A stretch of 64,000 nt of DNA, from the IMG/VR virus record IMGVR_UViG_3300007708_000003, positions 34,361 through 98,360 of that record; one strand, written 5' to 3'. This stretch comes from a virus. A program made the translations under genes and the position numbers. Shown one piece after another: positions 6,349 through 59,335 of this stretch (its first letter is position 1; the number at the start of each line of letters is the position of its first letter). Under the pieces are notes generated by a model. The model was not told the origin of the DNA and did not search any database. It saw nothing but the letters and a program-made list of their open reading frames with translations.

Positions 6349-9300
6349 TTAGCATCCAGGCTCGTCATGAATGTCATTGATTTCATCAAGTAATGACTGA
6401 TCACCCTTCTCTACAAATTTACTACTTTTTTTGGAAATATCACTCTTTGCTTGATTGTAATCTTCTAAAATAGATTGAATATCATTGTTTTGTATTTCTG
6501 TTGGTGCTGTTTCATCTACTGTAATCTTAGCATCTTCTTCTACTTCAGTTACATCACTCATGTTAAAAAAGTCTTCAAAATCAACAGCGTCTTCTTCATC
6601 AAACTCATCTGTTACAACAGCTAATACATTCTTACGCATTTCTTCTACTGAATCTTTTACAGATGGTATTCTTGAAAACATGCTTAGTAATTCAATAGTA
6701 CCATTTACTTCTTTATTATATTTATCCATAGCTTCAATAGCTCTAGACATAAAAGCATTTATTAAATCTTCATCTTCAGTATTCAGATAATCTTTTACAA
6801 ACTCTCTGTTTTCTTTTTGTATTTCAATTTTGCGTTCTAATTGATCTCCAAATATACTATCAAAGTCTACAGCTCCAGACATATCATCTGCCATCTCTGT
6901 GTAGTCTTCATCTTTTTTAAGTTTGTTATCTTGTTCTTTCTGAAACTTAACTTCCTCTTCTTTTTGAATATCCATTTTTCTTTGAACAGGAACTTTATTC
7001 ATTAAATCTTGTTCTTCAGAAGTAAATTTATTAATAGTTTTACCATTAGGTTTAACCATCTCTCTTACAAGTTCTTCAGCTTTCTGCATATCTACTGCAG
7101 GTTCTACAGGTTTACTTTCTAAAGCTTTATATTTAGTATTAATTTTATTTATTGCTTCTTCTCTTGTATATCCAAGTATTTTATCTTTTCTATTTTTTAA
7201 ATCATCTTTAGTAATTTCTTCTGAAACAAATGCTCCTGCCCAAATTCCTCCATATCTATTAGGAGATAATTGATGTAAATTAGAAATTTCTTTTTCCTTT
7301 TCAGTTTCTATATTAGAAACAATAGGAGCTACTTGTGATGGAGCTGTACTAGCAGGTTGATTAGGTTGACTGTTTACATCAGTAGATGTATTACTGTCTT
7401 GTGCTTTAGCTTTATCTAATAATACTTTAAGAGTTAATTCTTCTGCACCTTTTTTAAATATGGTAGCATTGATTTTATCTACTTCAGCTTGATACTGATC
7501 TTTACTAATCTCTTGTTTACCAAATCTTGTTTTAAGAGCTTTGTATGCAGGATTAAATTCTCTAACCATCTCTAAGGTTTTTATCTTAGATGCGTCAGAC
7601 ATAGATAAAAATTCCTGCACCATTGACTCAGGAGAAATAACTTCAACAGATTTTGCTTCTGTATCTTCTTCATCATCTTCAATAACAGGAGTTTTTATAG
7701 TTGATGGATCTGGAATATTTTGTACAGTAGTTTCACTAGGTAGATTGTCAATTTCTGCTTTTAATGTTTCTGCTGCCTCAACACTAAGAGGTTCTTCATT
7801 TACTACATCACCTGTAGCAATATCAACAACATCTGCTGTACCATCTTCATTTTGTACAACATTAACTTTAGGAGCATATCCTATTATACCTAACTCTTGA
7901 ATTTTATAATCTATTTGTTCTTTGTATATAGGATCTTCATACAACTTTGCCTCATTAGGTAATAACTCAGTATTATTCATTATCTTTTCAGCAATAATTA
8001 ATAGTCTGTAGTCATCTAATGATTTCTTTTCTTGTATGTCATTCATCTCACCTTCAGTAATGTCTTCATTGTATTGCTGAGGTGTATATTGTTTTATTGC
8101 TTTATGTACTTCTAATGATATAATTTTCTCAATCTCATTAACATATTTCTTAGCATCTTTATATGCTTCTATTCCTATCTTAGGATCTGTGATAATAATG
8201 TTTAATGCAATGTATGCGTCAGATTCTTTTACTCTATCAAATATCTGTTGGTATATTTCATTTGCAATTTTAAAATGTTCAACAGGATCTGCAGATACAT
8301 TTGATGCAATGCCACTACTAACTTTAACAACAGCTTCTTCTAGATTAGATATTAATGACTCTAAGTTATATTTAAATAAACCTGCCTCTGATCTTTTAAC
8401 CATAGACATAAATTTATCAGGATCAGATAATACTTCTACAGCTCTTAAATAGTCTTTAGAATCTTTATCTAATCTAATGTAATCTACAATTTTTTCAAAG
8501 CTATCATTAAGAGCACTTTGACCTAACTCTGAATCTAAACCTGCTTGTGAATTTTTAAGATTAATAATCTCTCTAAATAATTTAGATATCTTTTTGTTTT
8601 TAATATCCCATGTTTTAACTGGTGTCCAAAGTTTTTTACCATCTGCATTTTCAACTCTTTGTTTTTTGTTTTGCTCAATACCTGCAAAAACAAAATCTGT
8701 ATGTTCTACAACACCTGTTACTTCACTACGTTGTTTCCAAAGTTTTGCCCATTCATTTAATAAGTCAAGTTCTTTCTTAGTACTTTTTAATTGCTTTTCA
8801 GTTTGCTTTTTAACATCACCTGTAAGATTACCTTCTTCAAGTGTAGTGTTAAGTTGTTTTATTTGAGACATCACTGTATCAATTTCATTTGATAAAAATG
8901 ATGGGTTACTCAATACACGCATTGCATAATCAGAAGACATAGAAAGACCAGGAATAGCTGATAAATCTGCAGTAACACCTTTCAACCTTTCAGCTGTCAT
9001 GTCTGCTTTAATAGCATTCATTGCAATAATAGATATAGCTTCTTCTTGTGCAGCTCTTGTATGATTTGCAATAGTTCTGTCTATAGTTCCTTCTTGGTAT
9101 GCTTGAGGATCAACTAATTTATTTTTTACACCTCTTTTCATATCTTCAATGATATTAGTGTATTTTTGTAAATCACTTGCTACTTTTTCTGCATACTCTT
9201 GTGGAGTATTATAATTTGTATCTGCAATATCTATATTAAATTCTTTTTGGAATGCTTCAGCAGTATAATCCTGCCCCATATCTCTAATAGCACTTACAAA

Positions 9301-34125: not shown

Positions 34126-37086
34126 TTATAAGAAAAATTCACCAATTCTATTAAAAAATAAAAAAGAACCAGTACCACTAGCTGTAAAAGTACCTGTGTA
34201 AGTACTATTTACAGTACCATCTGAATTAAGTACATAATAACCTTTTGACACATTTCCTGTACCTAAGTAACTTGTTAAATATCCTGCAAATAAAACACTA
34301 CCATCATTAAGAACACTTACATCATATCCACATCTACCTATTGTAGAAGAAGAAAAATCTCCTAAAACTGTTGTTGTGTCAATAGTAAATGATGTATCTT
34401 TTGTTCCATCAGTATTAAGTTTAATTAAACCATTTGCTCTATTTGTAGTATCATCTGAACTATTATAATATGCAAAATTACCTGTTACTAAAATACCATT
34501 TACATGTGGTATAATTCTTTCTACACATACTCCATATTGTAGTAAAGTTCCAGACCCATAGTCTTTTGTACCATCTCTAAATGGTCTAAACCAACCTGAG
34601 TTAATACCTAAACTAGCATTTGGTTTTAAGAATCCTGTACCTGTATCAAATTCTAAAACTGGAGCAATGTCACCATTTTTTTTAATTTTAACAATGTTAT
34701 ATGCATTTACTCCTCTATAAGTATAAAAAGCACCACCTGCATATATATCTCCTAATACATCAACATATATTGTTTTTACTATTGAAGATGCATTTATAAA
34801 TCCAGTAGTAGTATCACGTACAGATTGTTGTACAGAAAAACTTGTTGATAAAGCACTAAATGTAGGATCTAGTGTTCCATCAAAGTTAAGCCTTACTAAG
34901 TTAAGTACATTAACAAATGTACCAGTAATATTTGTATAAGCATTAAATGCTCCTGCTACTACAATTTTTGTTTCAGTAGGATCTGATTCGTCAAATTGAA
35001 TATCATATACACATGGAGGCATACTAGCAGCTGAAGTATAACGTAATCCAGAAATTCCTATTTTAAATATAGTTTGAGGTATAATTGCTCCTGTAGTTGC
35101 GTCTAAACAAACAAGATTTGCTGAACATGGAATACCTTTATATGATTGAAAGCTACCTCCTACAAATATTCTATTTGAAGCTTGATGGTATTTTATTGCA
35201 CGTACAACAGCAGGAGTAATTGTACCAGTACTTACTCCAAATCCTTGATTAATACCTGATCCTGGATTAAATGTTCTATTTATTTGACCAAAAAATCTTG
35301 TAGATGAACTAGTACAATTTAATTTAATAACACCTCCTGACAAATATGAACCAGCTTGATCTGTTGCACCAGCTCCTGCTAAAGTACCTATAAAAATACC
35401 ATCATTAGCAAGTTCAGTAGTATAAATATTTGTATTATTTGATGATGGTACACTAAATCCTAAAACAGGTTTTGTTGTATTAAGATTTCCTGCAGAACTA
35501 TCTATTTTTAGCATACCTGTTTGAGGTGTAGCTATGTTACCCATAATAAATGATAAAGCTTCACCATTACAAAATTGAGGATCAGGACATGGAGGTATTT
35601 CAATAGTAAAATTTGTAGGATTACTATTTAAAATTCCACAATTTGTAGTAATAGAACCATTGTAAGTTACACCACATACCCATGGAAAACTAAATGATGG
35701 TAATGAACTTGTTAATGATGTAGAACTACCACCTGTAAAACCATATGTTAAAGTATAACCTACTGCACCAGGTAAAGCTGCAAATGTTACAAGTACATTA
35801 ATACCAGATATAACTACAGTAGGAGAAAAAGGTTGTGGACAATTTGGTTCACAACATGATTGTTGTGTAGAAGGTGATGGTTCACATATCCCATTACCTG
35901 AAGCTGGTGTAGTTATAGTACATGTACGTGTTTGAGTACAACCAGAACCTGGTACACATGGATCAGGTGTCCAAGCTGTACAAGTCCATACACAATCAAC
36001 ATCTGGTGGTTGTACACACCCTCCTCCTAATGTAGATGTTATCATTGCAGAAACTCCAGGTTCAGCAGCTGTCCACTCAGCACTTGATGTGCTAATAGGA
36101 TTAAATGTATCTGTATCTAAAGTATATCCTAAAATATAAGATATTCCAGTTTGATAAAAATGTTGCCATCCTTCAACAACATCATATATAACCTTCATAT
36201 TATATACACCATCTGGTGTAGTAATAGTCCACCAATATTCAGGAAACCCTGAGTTTCCTAAGTATACTGGTGCAACAGATGTATAATAAGTAAAAAGTTC
36301 AGGATCATCACCGCCACTATTTGTTATTAAAATTGTATATTGAAAACACATTTTTACAGCAGGACATGTTGATATTTGTGAGGAAATTAAAAAATCGTTA
36401 CATAACTCACAATTGCTCCATATTTGAGTAGTATTATTACTTATTGGTAAATAGTTGCTATTATTATTTAATGTTTGATATCCTGCTGCCATAGTACCTA
36501 AAATAGGTGTTATATGCCATAAAAGAGTAACATTATTATACCATACATAAAGATCAGGAGCACCACAAATAAATTCTAATAAATAATATGGTTTCTCATT
36601 AAGTATACCTACAGGTGATGTTAATATTTGTGTAGGATCAGGTTCTGATTCACACATATAACTACTAAAACTAAAACATACATCTTTAACATCACACACT
36701 TTATAATCAACTAAAGATCCACATTCAGCACCACCATTTGCAGCAGGTGTAATTACAGTTCTTGTACGTGTACTTCTACCACATACTAATAACTCATCTT
36801 CATAATAACATTCACATGAACTCCATGGTCCCCATGCACTAACTACACAGTCTTGTGGCACTTGTTCACAACAATCACATATAGGTAAAACATTATTAAA
36901 AATACTTAATACTTCTAAAAAAGTCATTCCTGATTCTATACCTAAACATTTAATATTGCTACCTGTATATATTACACAAGCAGCATTATATTCATTACCA
37001 CATAATCCTGACAAATCTGGAAGTGGTAATGGTGTTATTGTACTAGGACACGGTGAACAATCGTTGCAATTATTATTTGGATACAT
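34126..37086 (-). CDS. Cys-rich fibre/adhesin: two thrombospondin type-1-like repeats, FN3-like domain, delta-60-type beta-propeller repeats (986 aa)
   Basis: DCVVSAWGPWSSC..RTRTVITPAANGGAEC; KIVVAGAF..LVRLNFDGTLDPTF; LIKLNTDGTKDTSF. Confidence 0.65.
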   Translation of the reverse strand: MYPNNNCNDCSPCPSTITPLPLPDLSGLCGNEYNAACVIYTGSNIKCLGIESGMTFLEVLSIFNNVLPICDCCEQVPQDCVVSAWGPWSSCECYYEDELLVCGRSTRTRTVITPAANGGAECGSLVDYKVCDVKDVCFSFSSYMCESEPDPTQILTSPVGILNEKPYYLLEFICGAPDLYVWYNNVTLLWHITPILGTMAAGYQTLNNNSNYLPISNNTTQIWSNCELCNDFLISSQISTCPAVKMCFQYTILITNSGGDDPELFTYYTSVAPVYLGNSGFPEYWWTITTPDGVYNMKVIYDVVEGWQHFYQTGISYILGYTLDTDTFNPISTSSAEWTAAEPGVSAMITSTLGGGCVQPPDVDCVWTCTAWTPDPCVPGSGCTQTRTCTITTPASGNGICEPSPSTQQSCCEPNCPQPFSPTVVISGINVLVTFAALPGAVGYTLTYGFTGGSSTSLTSSLPSFSFPWVCGVTYNGSITTNCGILNSNPTNFTIEIPPCPDPQFCNGEALSFIMGNIATPQTGMLKIDSSAGNLNTTKPVLGFSVPSSNNTNIYTTELANDGIFIGTLAGAGATDQAGSYLSGGVIKLNCTSSSTRFFGQINRTFNPGSGINQGFGVSTGTITPAVVRAIKYHQASNRIFVGGSFQSYKGIPCSANLVCLDATTGAIIPQTIFKIGISGLRYTSAASMPPCVYDIQFDESDPTETKIVVAGAFNAYTNITGTFVNVLNLVRLNFDGTLDPTFSALSTSFSVQQSVRDTTTGFINASSIVKTIYVDVLGDIYAGGAFYTYRGVNAYNIVKIKKNGDIAPVLEFDTGTGFLKPNASLGINSGWFRPFRDGTKDYGSGTLLQYGVCVERIIPHVNGILVTGNFAYYNSSDDTTNRANGLIKLNTDGTKDTSFTIDTTTVLGDFSSSTIGRCGYDVSVLNDGSVLFAGYLTSYLGTGNVSKGYYVLNSDGTVNSTYTGTFTASGTGSFLFFNRIGEFFL

Positions 37087-53633: not shown

Positions 53634-55835
53634 TTATTTAAAATTTCTAAATGGATTGCGTGGTTTTGTCATGCCACTATTTACACTTTTATTTTTTCCC
53701 ATATGACGAAAAGGACTCACTTGTAATTTAGCATAATTATTTGACTTTTGCAAATTATCATCTTCTCTTTCAGTACGTTTAGTATATCCTCTATTAGATT
53801 GTTGTACTTGTGCAAATGCTACCATGGCACAAAATGCAACTAATCTATCTACGTTAAGTCCATCTCTATATGCTTGCATTTCTTTTAACAACATTATATC
53901 AGGTATTCTTTCAATACCATATGTTGTTTTTACAATTGTACCATCTGGTTTTGTTTCATGATCTAACTCTTCTTCTATAAATTGCTGTGCATATGATATA
54001 AGATTTGTCTTAAATAATGTACTAACATTTCTCCAACCATATTCTTGAAATACATTTGTATTACTTTGCAATTCTTTTAAGAATAATATTTGACTTTTAG
54101 GTACTAAATACTTTTGCTTTCTTTTTGCAATCATATACTGAATAAATAAAGATATATTATTTTCTACCACTGTCCAGGCATTATACCATTCTATAATAAG
54201 TTCTAGTCTTTCATGTGTTTTGTTAAGGTCATCAAACCTACCACACCATGCTGCAACAATTTTATCTCTTTCTACATATGAATCTATTGTACCATCAGCT
54301 TTATGTTTGGTAATTTCTTGTGATGTCTTGTATACAAATATGGAACACAATGAGTCTGAGGTAGTTGTCTTTCCTTCTGCAACAGGGTCAATAGATGCAT
54401 AGTACATCCCAAAGGTTATATCTTTTGCAGGTCTTTCCCATACAACAAGAACTCCTTCTTTATTTTCTGTTTTTGCAGATATAGGAAATTCAGATATAGG
54501 AATTTTTTTAGATTCTTTTGCTGTGATTGTATTATTTTCATCTCTTGATAATTCTAAAAATTCTTTATAGTATGTACCATCTTCTATTCTTCTAATTTGT
54601 GATACAACTAATGCAGGATTAAACTTGGGAGCTTTTCTACTTGTAAATGCTTCTTCTATAGTTATAGGATGCTGAGATATACGCAATTGATAATCATCAG
54701 GTTTAAGATCTCTCTTCCATTGTATTCTTTCTTCTTTGATCATTTCTAATGCTTTCTCTACTAGAGAGTTACCATAGTTATCTATACATGGTATCATTGA
54801 CCATTGCTGAGGTATAAACAATCCACACTGACCTTTAGTACCTTTATCATCTAACAAGTCAGTTTCAACAGCAAGAATGTCTTTACTGTTTGGCATCATT
54901 AACATTTCTCTTAAAGGTTCACATTGATCTAAATCTCCAACAGAACCAGCAACAACAAATTGTCCAGTATATACCATACCAGACTTCATTGCAGGAAGTA
55001 AGTATTCTAATGTTTGATTCATTTTAGGGGCAATACCTGCCTCCTCATGAAAGAAAAAAGTACAAGGACCTCCTACACCATTTGTAGGATCTTTGTCTAA
55101 TATAAGTCCTAATAATACAGATTTTAAACCTATATCTCTTTTTCTACCAGATTGATTTATTTCAATCTTTTGTTCCCAGTTAAATATCTTATCTGGAGTA
55201 CATGGTCTATACCATGCAGTATAAGTATTAAGAAAGTTTCTGTATTCTTCAAGAAAACGCCATGTACCTTTTTCTCCAATATAGTCTTTTAAAGATCCTG
55301 CCATTTTATTTATAGAACCTTCTTCAAACCAAAAGTAATTTATCATTTTTCCTGCATGATAATAACTAGATGCTATCTGACGTTTCTTTAATATAAGTGC
55401 ATGTTTAGAACTATGTCTACCAATTTCTTCATATAGTGCCATATGATACTGTGCATCTCTGACACTAGCAAATCCAAACTTAGATATTTCTTTGTTATAT
55501 ATAGGAAGAAAGTTTAACCACATGTAATAGTCTCTTGAAAGATACCATCTGTTTTTTTTGTTCTTATATATTACACCATTTCTACATTTATCTTTTTCAG
55601 TATCCCAATAAGTAATATAATCTTTTGAACGCATTGGAGCATAGCAATACACTTTGTTATTTTTTTCAAAGTTTGTTGCTTGTTCATTAAACTTTTGTGA
55701 TGTTTCATCAAACTCATATTTACCTGGTTCCTTAAATAAAGACCACATAAACTTTACAAATTCTTCTCTTGTTTCAAAATCTGTGTGTGACCATACATCA
55801 GTTGTATCATCATATGTTGGTACAGATATATACAT
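53634..55835 (-). CDS. terL: Terminase large subunit (733 aa)
   Basis: LKKRQIASSY Walker A variant, FFHEEAG Walker B, YASIDPV nuclease motif, NVDRLVA. Confidence 0.9.
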   Translation of the reverse strand: MYISVPTYDDTTDVWSHTDFETREEFVKFMWSLFKEPGKYEFDETSQKFNEQATNFEKNNKVYCYAPMRSKDYITYWDTEKDKCRNGVIYKNKKNRWYLSRDYYMWLNFLPIYNKEISKFGFASVRDAQYHMALYEEIGRHSSKHALILKKRQIASSYYHAGKMINYFWFEEGSINKMAGSLKDYIGEKGTWRFLEEYRNFLNTYTAWYRPCTPDKIFNWEQKIEINQSGRKRDIGLKSVLLGLILDKDPTNGVGGPCTFFFHEEAGIAPKMNQTLEYLLPAMKSGMVYTGQFVVAGSVGDLDQCEPLREMLMMPNSKDILAVETDLLDDKGTKGQCGLFIPQQWSMIPCIDNYGNSLVEKALEMIKEERIQWKRDLKPDDYQLRISQHPITIEEAFTSRKAPKFNPALVVSQIRRIEDGTYYKEFLELSRDENNTITAKESKKIPISEFPISAKTENKEGVLVVWERPAKDITFGMYYASIDPVAEGKTTTSDSLCSIFVYKTSQEITKHKADGTIDSYVERDKIVAAWCGRFDDLNKTHERLELIIEWYNAWTVVENNISLFIQYMIAKRKQKYLVPKSQILFLKELQSNTNVFQEYGWRNVSTLFKTNLISYAQQFIEEELDHETKPDGTIVKTTYGIERIPDIMLLKEMQAYRDGLNVDRLVAFCAMVAFAQVQQSNRGYTKRTEREDDNLQKSNNYAKLQVSPFRHMGKNKSVNSGMTKPRNPFRNFK

Positions 55836-58461: not shown

Positions 58462-58528
58462 TTATGTATAAAATGTTGGTTATTTAATGCAAAATGCATG
58501 TTTTTGTATAGAATACTATACATTCTTG

Positions 58529-58886
58529 TGGAGGTGAGGAGAATCGAACTCCTGTCCAAACCATGATCAATAATACAATTTATACAGCTTATAGGTAATC
58601 AACTCAGTTGATGACTCCACCACTCTATTTAATCTAACAGAGAAATCTTTATGGCAATTTTTAAAGTCTTGAGCCAGTGTTTGACTGAATTAATCTAGGC
58701 TGCTACAGCAACTTCTTCTCTAATCAAAGAGAATACTTTGTTCATGTTAGCTTCTACTTGTGCGTTGTCTCCTAGAGATACTACACCAATTGTGTTTTTG
58801 CCATTTATTATATTCACCTTAGTTTACAGTTATCTCTCTGGCTGATTGTATTACTTACTAATGACCTGTCAAAACCAGTCACCCCC
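58529..58886 (-). ncRNA. ssrA: tmRNA (transfer-messenger RNA)
   Basis: 5' GGGGGTGACTGGTTTTGACAGG and 3' GGACAGGAGTTCGATTCTCCTCACCTCCA; 7-bp acceptor with G3.U alanine determinant; T-arm; internal tag ORF ending VAVAA-TAG; 358 nt; CCA not encoded. Confidence 0.93.
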
Positions 58887-59085: not shown

Positions 59086-59099
59086 ACTTTTATCTTTAG

Positions 59100-59170
59100 T
59101 TGCGTGGGAGGGAGTCGAACCCTCAGCTCTGGAATATGAGTCCAGCAAGTTACTATTACTCTACCACACT
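59100..59170 (-). tRNA. tRNA-Met(CAT), initiator-like
   Basis: AGTGTGG/CCACGCA acceptor with 1:72 mismatch, A11:U24 pair, CTGGA-CTCATAT-TCCAG anticodon arm, GAGGG-TTCGACT-CCCTC T-arm. Confidence 0.85.
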
Positions 59171-59175
59171 ATAAA

Positions 59176-59335
59176 ACAGTTGTTTATGGCACAACTGACT
59201 AAGCCTTCAGTAACTTTTGAATACCCCCAGAGTTACAAACTGTGCTAACCTACGATTTAGAGAGCCTCCACGCCAACACTATAAGTGTCTGTAATCTCTG
59301 TCTTCGTTACGTACCAGTGCACTGGCAGAGGTCTT
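59176..59335 (-). ncRNA. Candidate structured RNA between the GroES-like gene and the tRNA
   Basis: GC-richer gap with nested stems CTCTG/CAGAG around CCAGT/ACTGG; GACACT/AGTGTT; GTAACT/AGTTAC; CAGTTGT/ACAACTG. Confidence 0.4.

Follow-up and report, generated by a model that had tools for sequence, protein, structure and literature searches.

Long-tag tmRNAs of crAss-like and related phages share a conserved and probably helical tag core

Background

Proteobacterial ssrA tags with an adaptor-binding part have 11-14 residues and are unstructured; the A-A-N-D-E-N-Y part of the Escherichia coli tag is bound by SspB, while the Caulobacter tag ends in F-A-V-A-A. A tag of 27 residues, directed to Lon, was reportedly described for Mycoplasma by Gur and Sauer in 2008. 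The tmRNA of Mycoplasma with its 27-residue Lon-directed tag is also treated in later work (PMC8403727, Burgos et al. 2021), and the range of tag lengths given in a review is 8-35 residues (PMC8012679).

Phage tmRNAs as such are known from the Bxz1-group mycobacteriophages and Bacillus phage G (PMC4131195), from the Methylophilales phage Melnitz, whose two-piece tmRNA was reported with a survey of 402 phage genomes with ssrA (PMC9004378), and from a further study (PMC7162821). Keeping host translation running and tagging proteins for recycling are the roles proposed for them (PMC4131195, PMC9004378). Papers on flavobacterial phages merely count tmRNA genes (PMC8776804, PMC11590407). Here we describe a tmRNA of a crAss-like phage whose tag of 35 codons contains a conserved core, and compare it with its phage relatives and with the chromosomal tmRNAs of Flavobacteriales.

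An alanine-type tmRNA gene in a crAss-like phage record

The window analysed here is a stretch of 64,000 nucleotides (positions 34,361 to 98,360) of the 98,360-bp IMG/VR record IMGVR_UViG_3300007708_000003, which belongs to a crAss-like phage and is 78% complete according to CheckV; all coordinates are those of the window, and (-) denotes the minus strand. Its large terminase (53634-55835) matches PHROG 6681 and is 24-26% identical to the terminases of crAss-like, Cellulophaga and FpV4-like Flavobacterium phages. Two RNA genes were found in the window by ARAGORN, a tmRNA at 58528-58886 (-) and a separate tRNA-Met(CAU) at 59099-59170 (-). The tmRNA has small unknown ORFs, a PD-(D/E)XK exonuclease and the large terminase as its neighbours.

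The Rfam model RF00023 matches 58526-58886 (-) over its full length (model positions 1-374; 86.1 bits, E = 5.6e-32, against a gathering score of 47 bits), and a search of the whole 98,360-bp record again gave 86.1 bits for the tmRNA. The ends were defined by the pairing of the acceptor stem and T arm, which gives a one-piece gene of 358 nt running from 58886 to the discriminator A at 58529 (58529-58886, (-)). A preliminary description made from the sequence had proposed a tmRNA of exactly this range and length; our independent end-finding arrives at the same values, and ARAGORN and RF00023, the checks suggested there, concur.

The 5' strand of the acceptor stem, GGGGGUG (58880-58886, (-)), pairs with CACCUCC (58530-58536) and includes G3 of the G3:U70 alanine identity pair, while the T arm reads AGGAG-UUCGAUU-CUCCU. 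The domain lacks an anticodon arm. CCA is not encoded, the bases after the discriminator A being CAAG. The G3:U70 pair and the discriminator A of the window recur in each of 76 distinct full-length relatives (76/76). These RNAs of 301-474 nt also share, without exception, an acceptor stem of 7 bp and a T arm; the remaining acceptor-stem pairs vary among them with compensatory changes. RNAalifold, applied to the 5' and 3' parts of these 76 relatives, recovers the closing block at 58529-58590 (-), composed of the helix 2 3' strand, the T arm (58537-58553), the acceptor 3' strand (58530-58536) and the discriminator A (58529), and many compensatory double changes preserve helix 2 and the T arm. 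Judged from these sequences, the tmRNA is structurally intact and selected as RNA, and its tRNA-like domain is of the alanine type, for which charging is predicted.

The tRNA-Met(CAU), also matched by Rfam RF00005 (54.4 bits), precedes the tmRNA by 212 nt and shares its strand. It has an A1 x A72 mismatch atop its acceptor stem, and its anticodon stem has no more than two G-C pairs in a row. In several relatives the 3' end of a tRNA stands immediately upstream of the tmRNA, and hence the tmRNA is often part of a tRNA cluster. The only terminator-like hairpin in the 1.1-kb RNA-gene region of the window (59177-59197, (-)) is located just upstream of the tRNA-Met, which suggests that tRNA and tmRNA form a transcription unit apart from the preceding genes. 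A sigma-70 promoter scan gave a count at shuffle level, with a model that is unsuited to Bacteroidota or crAss-like promoters.

Distribution of the family and its genomic context

Relatives of the tmRNA were collected by a family-specific word at the position of pseudoknot 1 (PK1), a block of 26 nt at 58813-58838 (-) that ends 10 nt before the resume codon in the window and recurs exactly or as a one-base variant in all relatives. The exact word retrieved 24 plus 104 viral contigs, and a back-translated pattern of the tag peptide added 76 loci, of which 16 have one-base variants of the block; with exact-word collection, the breadth and host range of the family are lower bounds. The set used for comparison comprises 94 distinct relatives, found on well over 100 viral contigs.

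Among 185,579 species genomes, the exact block occurs once, on the 4.9-kb contig JBIPLT010000239.1 (4,939 bp) of a Flavobacteriales MAG that comes from the same metagenome as family viral contigs. In IMG/VR, a contig of the same sample and of identical size (3300034064_000979) is listed as viral. We did not find a host-type tmRNA in the MAG, and it seems that a phage contig was binned into it, where its tmRNA could be mistaken for the ssrA of the organism. On present sampling the family is therefore restricted to phages.

The cultured carriers are Cellulophaga phage phi14:2 and the Fipvunavirus group around Flavobacterium phage FpV4. In phi14:2 (KC821624.1, L002:1528-1997), a frame of 38 codons starts from a host-type context where ARAGORN gives a tag of 11 residues, and in FpV4 (KT876724.1, L001:1501-1915) the frame has 35 codons in a gene that is missed by ARAGORN and reaches 58 bits with RF00023. 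No tmRNA feature is annotated in either GenBank record, and in phi14:2 the tmRNA is overlaid by the hypothetical CDSs gp011-gp014. These genes resemble the earlier phage tmRNAs in being complete ssrA genes of virulent phages without smpB, but the papers on the latter deal with other host phyla and describe neither tag length nor a conserved core (PMC4131195, PMC9004378). In the literature searched, which covered few subscription journals, we found no paper on this long-tag family.

No smpB had been noted in the window by the preliminary description, and this absence extends to the whole 98,360-bp record and to five complete or nearly complete carrier genomes. Since none of these six phage genomes encodes SmpB, we infer that the host protein must serve as the partner of the phage tmRNA, as had been assumed. 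An all-against-all comparison of the ORFs within 4 kb of the tmRNA at 76 loci revealed no co-travelling gene, as no ORF family was present in more than 17 loci.

The tag peptide and its conserved core

The reading frame of the tag comprises 35 codons (58698-58802, (-)) from the resume codon GGC (Gly; 58800-58802, (-)) to the stop codon TAG (58695-58697, (-)). The encoded peptide begins with G-K-N-T and ends with E-E-V-A-V-A-A, an ending that we take to be close to that of the Caulobacter tag. Across the family, tags have 26-45 residues with both median and mode at 35 (95 distinct peptides), and the stop codon is TAA in 76 and TAG in 18 relatives. The C-terminus is Ala-Ala in 90 of the 95 distinct tags and Val-Ala in the other five.

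Within the 35-residue class (27 sequences), pN/pS is 0.54 in the tag frame, while the two other frames give 1.04 and 1.24, and the variable columns number 14, 11 and 21 at codon positions 1, 2 and 3, the third being the most variable. Taken separately, codons 1-14 have a pN/pS of 0.82 and codons 15-27 one of 0.22; at the end, a segment of low overall diversity, the value is 0.90. Codons 15-27 (58722-58760, (-)) encode the core, Q-V-E-A-N-M-N-K-V-F-S-L-I in the window and Q-[I/V]-x-A-N-M-x-x-V-[F/H/Y]-[S/N]-[L/I]-[L/I] as the 13-residue consensus of the family. Q, A, N and M do not vary among the 94 relatives and V is kept in 93/94, with varied synonymous codon use (four codons for Ala, three for Val and six at the Leu/Ile positions). 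By these codon comparisons, the 13-residue core is under purifying selection at the peptide level.

AlphaFold2, given an alignment of 89 sequences, models residues 10-34 as one helix, in which residues 11-30 have a pLDDT of about 86. The segment N-M-N-K-V-F-S-L-I-R-E has the highest helical hydrophobic moment, 0.56, and the hydrophobic face of the core is made up of M, V, F/H, L/I and L/I. The core thus probably forms an amphipathic helix.

The statements of the preliminary description on the tag that could be checked all agree with these data. It reported a GxN start and an AxAA end with about 25 residues inserted, and we find a host-like G-K/N-N start, a host-like x-A-A end and about 25 residues in between; the possible amphipathic helix that it marked is predicted by both AlphaFold2 and the hydrophobic moment; and the survey of related phage tmRNAs that it proposed yielded the length range and the mode at 35 given above. 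Its view of the tag as exceptionally long holds against the hosts (9-10 residues compared with 35), but 35 residues equals the published upper limit, although relatives reach 45.

In a profile search of 1.84 billion protein representatives, the core motif was found in no protein family. The search gave 81 matches, of which 80 are ORF calls of 28-94 residues that match at or near their C-terminal end and the remaining one is a spurious long protein; all of the short-ORF matches that were inspected (12/12) read through a tmRNA. We also considered that the core was derived from a read-through copy of the host tag. E-N-A-Q-V-Q-A-N was compared by eye with E-N-N-Y-A-L-A-A, and the origin was rejected, as the base identity of ~44% is not significant. 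A few metagenome members (P0029, P0034) do not have the Ala-Ala end; one frame passes the usual stop and another ends in D-L-S. Such tags could be decaying copies, or variants that confer a different fate on the tagged proteins.

Host tmRNAs, host proteases and the possible role of the core

For comparison with hosts, 80 further genomes of the order Flavobacteriales were searched. Exactly one RF00023 match above the cut-off was found in 75 of them (392-411 nt, 110-181 bits), and a second tmRNA in none of the 80. Among 30 loci examined with ARAGORN, 28 have tags of 9-10 residues of the G-E-N-N-Y-A-L-A-A type, in line with the earlier statement that host tags of this type have about 10 residues; of the remaining loci, one was missed by the program and one was given an implausible tag. 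ClpX was detected above the curated cut-off in all five genomes of the host order that were searched for it (5/5), and SspB in none of the five (0/5).

The chromosomal tmRNAs share with the phage RNA the G3:U70 tRNA-like domain, the U-A-A-N-Y context followed by G, the one-piece layout, a first residue G or D and a C-terminal hydrophobic-Ala-Ala. In contrast, the phage RNA is shorter and scores lower (358 nt and 86 bits against 392-411 nt and 110-181 bits), its tag has 35 instead of 9-10 residues and contains a conserved internal core without host counterpart, its PK1 sequence is unrelated, and the region past its tag, made up of other modules, has about half the host length.

By analogy with cellular trans-translation, the host alanyl-tRNA synthetase would charge the phage tmRNA via G3:U70 and the discriminator A, and host SmpB and EF-Tu would carry it to the stalled ribosomes of an infected Flavobacteria-type cell. 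Translation would then resume at GGC 58802-58800 and add alanine plus the 35 encoded residues ending in V-A-A to the stalled chain. The tag would thereby present a short host-like start (G-K-N), a variable spacer, the 13-residue core and a host-like Ala-Ala end, the last of which would still be recognised by host ClpXP and direct tagged chains to it. That the RNA is a tmRNA with a long translated tag we consider very highly probable. The sequences themselves show an RNA family with its reading frame, selection acting on the peptide and confinement to phages, and when these findings are taken jointly with the standard steps of charging, delivery, tagging and ClpXP recognition, the combined account is still quite probable.

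The role of the core is more weakly inferred. The preliminary description had suggested that the phage tag could redirect rescued chains to another protease or adaptor, or that the tmRNA could keep rescue going when nucleases attack, ideas that are hypothetical at this stage. The core may be a second recognition element through which a host factor, either a protease or an adaptor, changes what becomes of rescued chains in the infected cell, and a host factor is proposed rather than a phage factor because no phage gene co-travels with the tmRNA; we hold this role to be plausible, though with odds slightly against it. The core might enhance degradation or redirect it, for which the Lon-directed tag of Mycoplasma is a precedent. 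Both tags are unusually long, and the extra residues of the Mycoplasma tag carry recognition information. However, the latter belongs to a cellular tmRNA of a lineage that has lost ClpXP, while the phage tag retains Ala-Ala in hosts that keep ClpX, so that the proteome without ClpXP that marks the Mycoplasma case is not what the five host-order genomes display; in addition, the two tags have no sequence similarity. With the proteobacterial tags, the phage tag has in common an upstream adaptor element, putative in the phage case, combined with a C-terminal x-A-A for ClpX, but its core is longer and predicted to be helical, and SspB is absent from the five host genomes examined.

Alternatively, the core might switch the tag to Lon or FtsH rather than aid ClpXP, or it might shield, sequester or membrane-target the tagged chains. 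Lon prefers exposed hydrophobic stretches, and the hydrophobic face of the core would offer one. Hosts without SspB and the precedent of a long tag read by Lon (PMC8403727) also speak for such a switch. Against it, the hosts keep ClpX, unlike Mycoplasma, and the Ala-Ala end of 90 of the 95 variants would be needless if ClpXP were uninvolved; we therefore judge this alternative to be unlikely, though it is the strongest of those considered here.

The resume codon and the reading frame

The tag reported by ARAGORN has 18 residues and lies in the same frame as the tag of 35 codons, but it starts from GCU (58749-58751, (-)). If translation resumed there, the tag would begin with A-N-M and the 17 codons upstream would be an untranslated spacer. 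GCN is the commonest resume codon in bacteria, and the codons before the core are, with pN/pS of 0.82, weakly constrained as a peptide. The frame of the E. coli tmRNA is fixed by U85 at position -5 and A86 at position -4 (PMC2481249), and the U-A-G-A-A that precedes GCU in the window also gives U(-5) and A(-4). However, no more than 45/94 relatives have A(-4) at this site, a position that falls on the wobble base of a Val/Ile codon, and the distance of the site from the PK1 block varies between 27 and 64 nt.

The resume context in front of GGC, U-A-A-A-U (58803-58807, (-)), in contrast has A(-4) in 94/94 and U(-5) in 92/94 relatives, and the family context [U/G]-A-A-N-[U/C] followed by G sits 9-13 nt past the PK1 block in 94/94, as in hosts. 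The Rfam consensus resume codon aligns with GGC, and the first codons of the family are GGC in 52, GGA in 23 and GAC in 19 relatives. In the tmRNAs of Flavobacteriales, too, the first tag residue is G or D and U-A-A-N-Y stands in front of it, as U-U-U-A-A-A-U before GGC, A-A-U-A-A-U-U before GAC and U-A-U-A-A-A-C before GGC. Since the site was defined in part by this context, independent support comes from its frame relation to the core, the only independent test of the context itself, and from the comparison with hosts and the fixed PK1 distance.

The stretch between the context and the invariant GCN-AAY-AUG (Ala-Asn-Met) measures 18, 24, 27, 30, 39, 42 or 51 nt, seven classes that are all multiples of three. 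It contains an in-frame stop in 0/94 relatives, while the other two frames are stopped in 60 and 28 of the 94. No context out of frame with Ala-Asn-Met was found among 206 loci, and no locus without Ala-Asn-Met among the collected loci long enough to judge. Over the whole tag, the frame is open in 94/94 relatives and both other frames carry stops in 94/94. Selection on residues also extends upstream of the start called by ARAGORN, because the Q at -3 from Ala-Asn-Met is invariant, and the N at -5 is kept in 70/94. The weakly constrained spacer of codons 1-14 is considered to be translated on the grounds of frame conservation and resume context, not of residue conservation.

The host-like context, the frame-preserving indels, the lack of stops and the selection at the peptide level together support resumption at GGC 58802-58800 rather than at the GCU of ARAGORN, for which we see very little chance. 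In this respect, sequence, RF00023 alignment and family comparison agree with the original reading of GGC after ATAAAT, 35 codons and TAG at 58697-58695.

A similar argument applies to the possibility that the RNA is not a template at all. Phages often integrate into ssrA, and the gene could be a leftover of an integration site, or a decoy that titrates host SmpB, with a merely incidental frame. A tmRNA fragment in the mycobacteriophage DS6A that consists only of a TLD, suggested to titrate SmpB, may serve as a precedent (PMC4131195). The gene in the window is complete, unlike the 3' fragments of att-site duplicates, and its full tRNA-like domain and helix 2 covary in the family. Moreover, the frame is open in all relatives with both others stopped, the core combines pN/pS of 0.22 with synonymous codon turnover, and the Ala-Ala end and stop codon are kept, all of which makes a decoy or leftover highly improbable.

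The region around and downstream of the tag

At the PK1 position, the host tmRNA sequence differs from the family block, which is a candidate pseudoknot. The block is almost invariant and therefore offers no covariation, the RF00023 alignment has mismatches there, and inspection yielded no clear pairing scheme.

Downstream of the stop codon, two modules are recognised in the window. Module A (58652-58686, (-)) is an H-type pseudoknot of AGUC/GACU (58686-58683 with 58668-58665) and UGGC/GCCA (58676-58673 with 58655-58652). In the 11 relatives with this module, stem 1 covaries (AGUC/GACU, UGUC/GACA, CCUC/GAGG and ACUC/GAGU), and stem 2 is invariant. Module B (58592-58642, (-)) consists of a covarying stem, CUCUG/UAGAG (58642-58638 with 58627-58623), an invariant UGGUGGA and a hairpin of nine pairs; a perfect 5-bp stem is formed in 41 of the 65 relatives with the module, by 11 different pair combinations. 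The downstream pseudoknots are thus present in reduced form, with two modules instead of the three (PK2-PK4) of most bacteria. From the stop to the helix 2 3' strand there are ~104 nt in the window and down to ~65 nt in relatives, compared with ~200 nt in hosts, and the pseudoknot region is hence compressed to about half the host size, as the preliminary description had deduced from the total length. The post-tag regions of the relatives have one to about four modules in different combinations. Both at 58592-58686 of the window and in the relatives, this region appears as a mosaic of a few pseudoknot and hairpin modules within RNAs that measure 301-474 nt altogether, a pattern suggestive of recombination among phage tmRNAs. 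A further hairpin ('helix 5'), which spans the stop codon and the four codons before it, was not accepted as a general feature, being confined to the A-V-A-A subtype and having one compensatory pair.

Module B is also found in the uncultured crAss-like gut phage cr128_1 (MT774392.1 ~7820-8490; L170:400-1071), within a tmRNA-like 5' half, GGGGCAUGAUUUGG..., in which UUUAACU precedes a short tag frame, G-N-T-Y-R-A-A-A. L170:400-1071 is not called as a tmRNA by ARAGORN or RF00023, and a group I intron (RF00028, 86 bits, L170 802-1071) directly follows the tmRNA-like half. The tmRNA of cr128_1 may therefore be interrupted by this intron near its 3' part.

The notion that the long frame merely reflects RNA architecture, in which the coding stretch grew as pseudoknots 2-4 were lost and so kept the loop at a ribosome-wrapping length, would fit the short post-tag region but has very little likelihood, because tag and post-tag lengths are uncorrelated (Spearman -0.06, p 0.61, n = 76, by which length compensation between tag and pseudoknots was rejected), the total length ranges widely, and selection acts on residues and not on bases. 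Later resumption, a decoy and a pure spacer are thus contradicted by the frame, selection and correlation data.

Conclusions

Translation upkeep, amino-acid recycling and host-state sensing are the published ideas on why some phages carry their own tmRNA. The family described here provides a concrete handle on this question, with tags three to four times the host length, a peptide-selected core of 13 residues and ~95 distinct variants. It is directly testable in Cellulophaga baltica with phi14:2 and in Flavobacterium psychrophilum with FpV4-like phages, which carry the tmRNA unannotated. There are also consequences for annotation: ARAGORN misses some members, such as FpV4, and truncates the tags of others, and dozens of spurious small 'proteins' arise when gene callers take the tag frame for a gene (80/81 matched clusters in the library of 1.84 billion proteins).

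The helical core may be a sorting signal that is specified by the phage and read by a dedicated host (or distant phage) factor, an idea that we advance tentatively, as one that could well be wrong. If it is true, every nascent chain rescued during infection would take another route than chains that received the host tag: it might go to another protease, reach ClpXP faster in a host without SspB, or be prevented from poisoning the assembly of the giant virion proteins of the phage. The family would then be the first among tmRNA tags with a structured functional module beyond the terminal degron, and would give a direct handle on why phages carry tmRNA.
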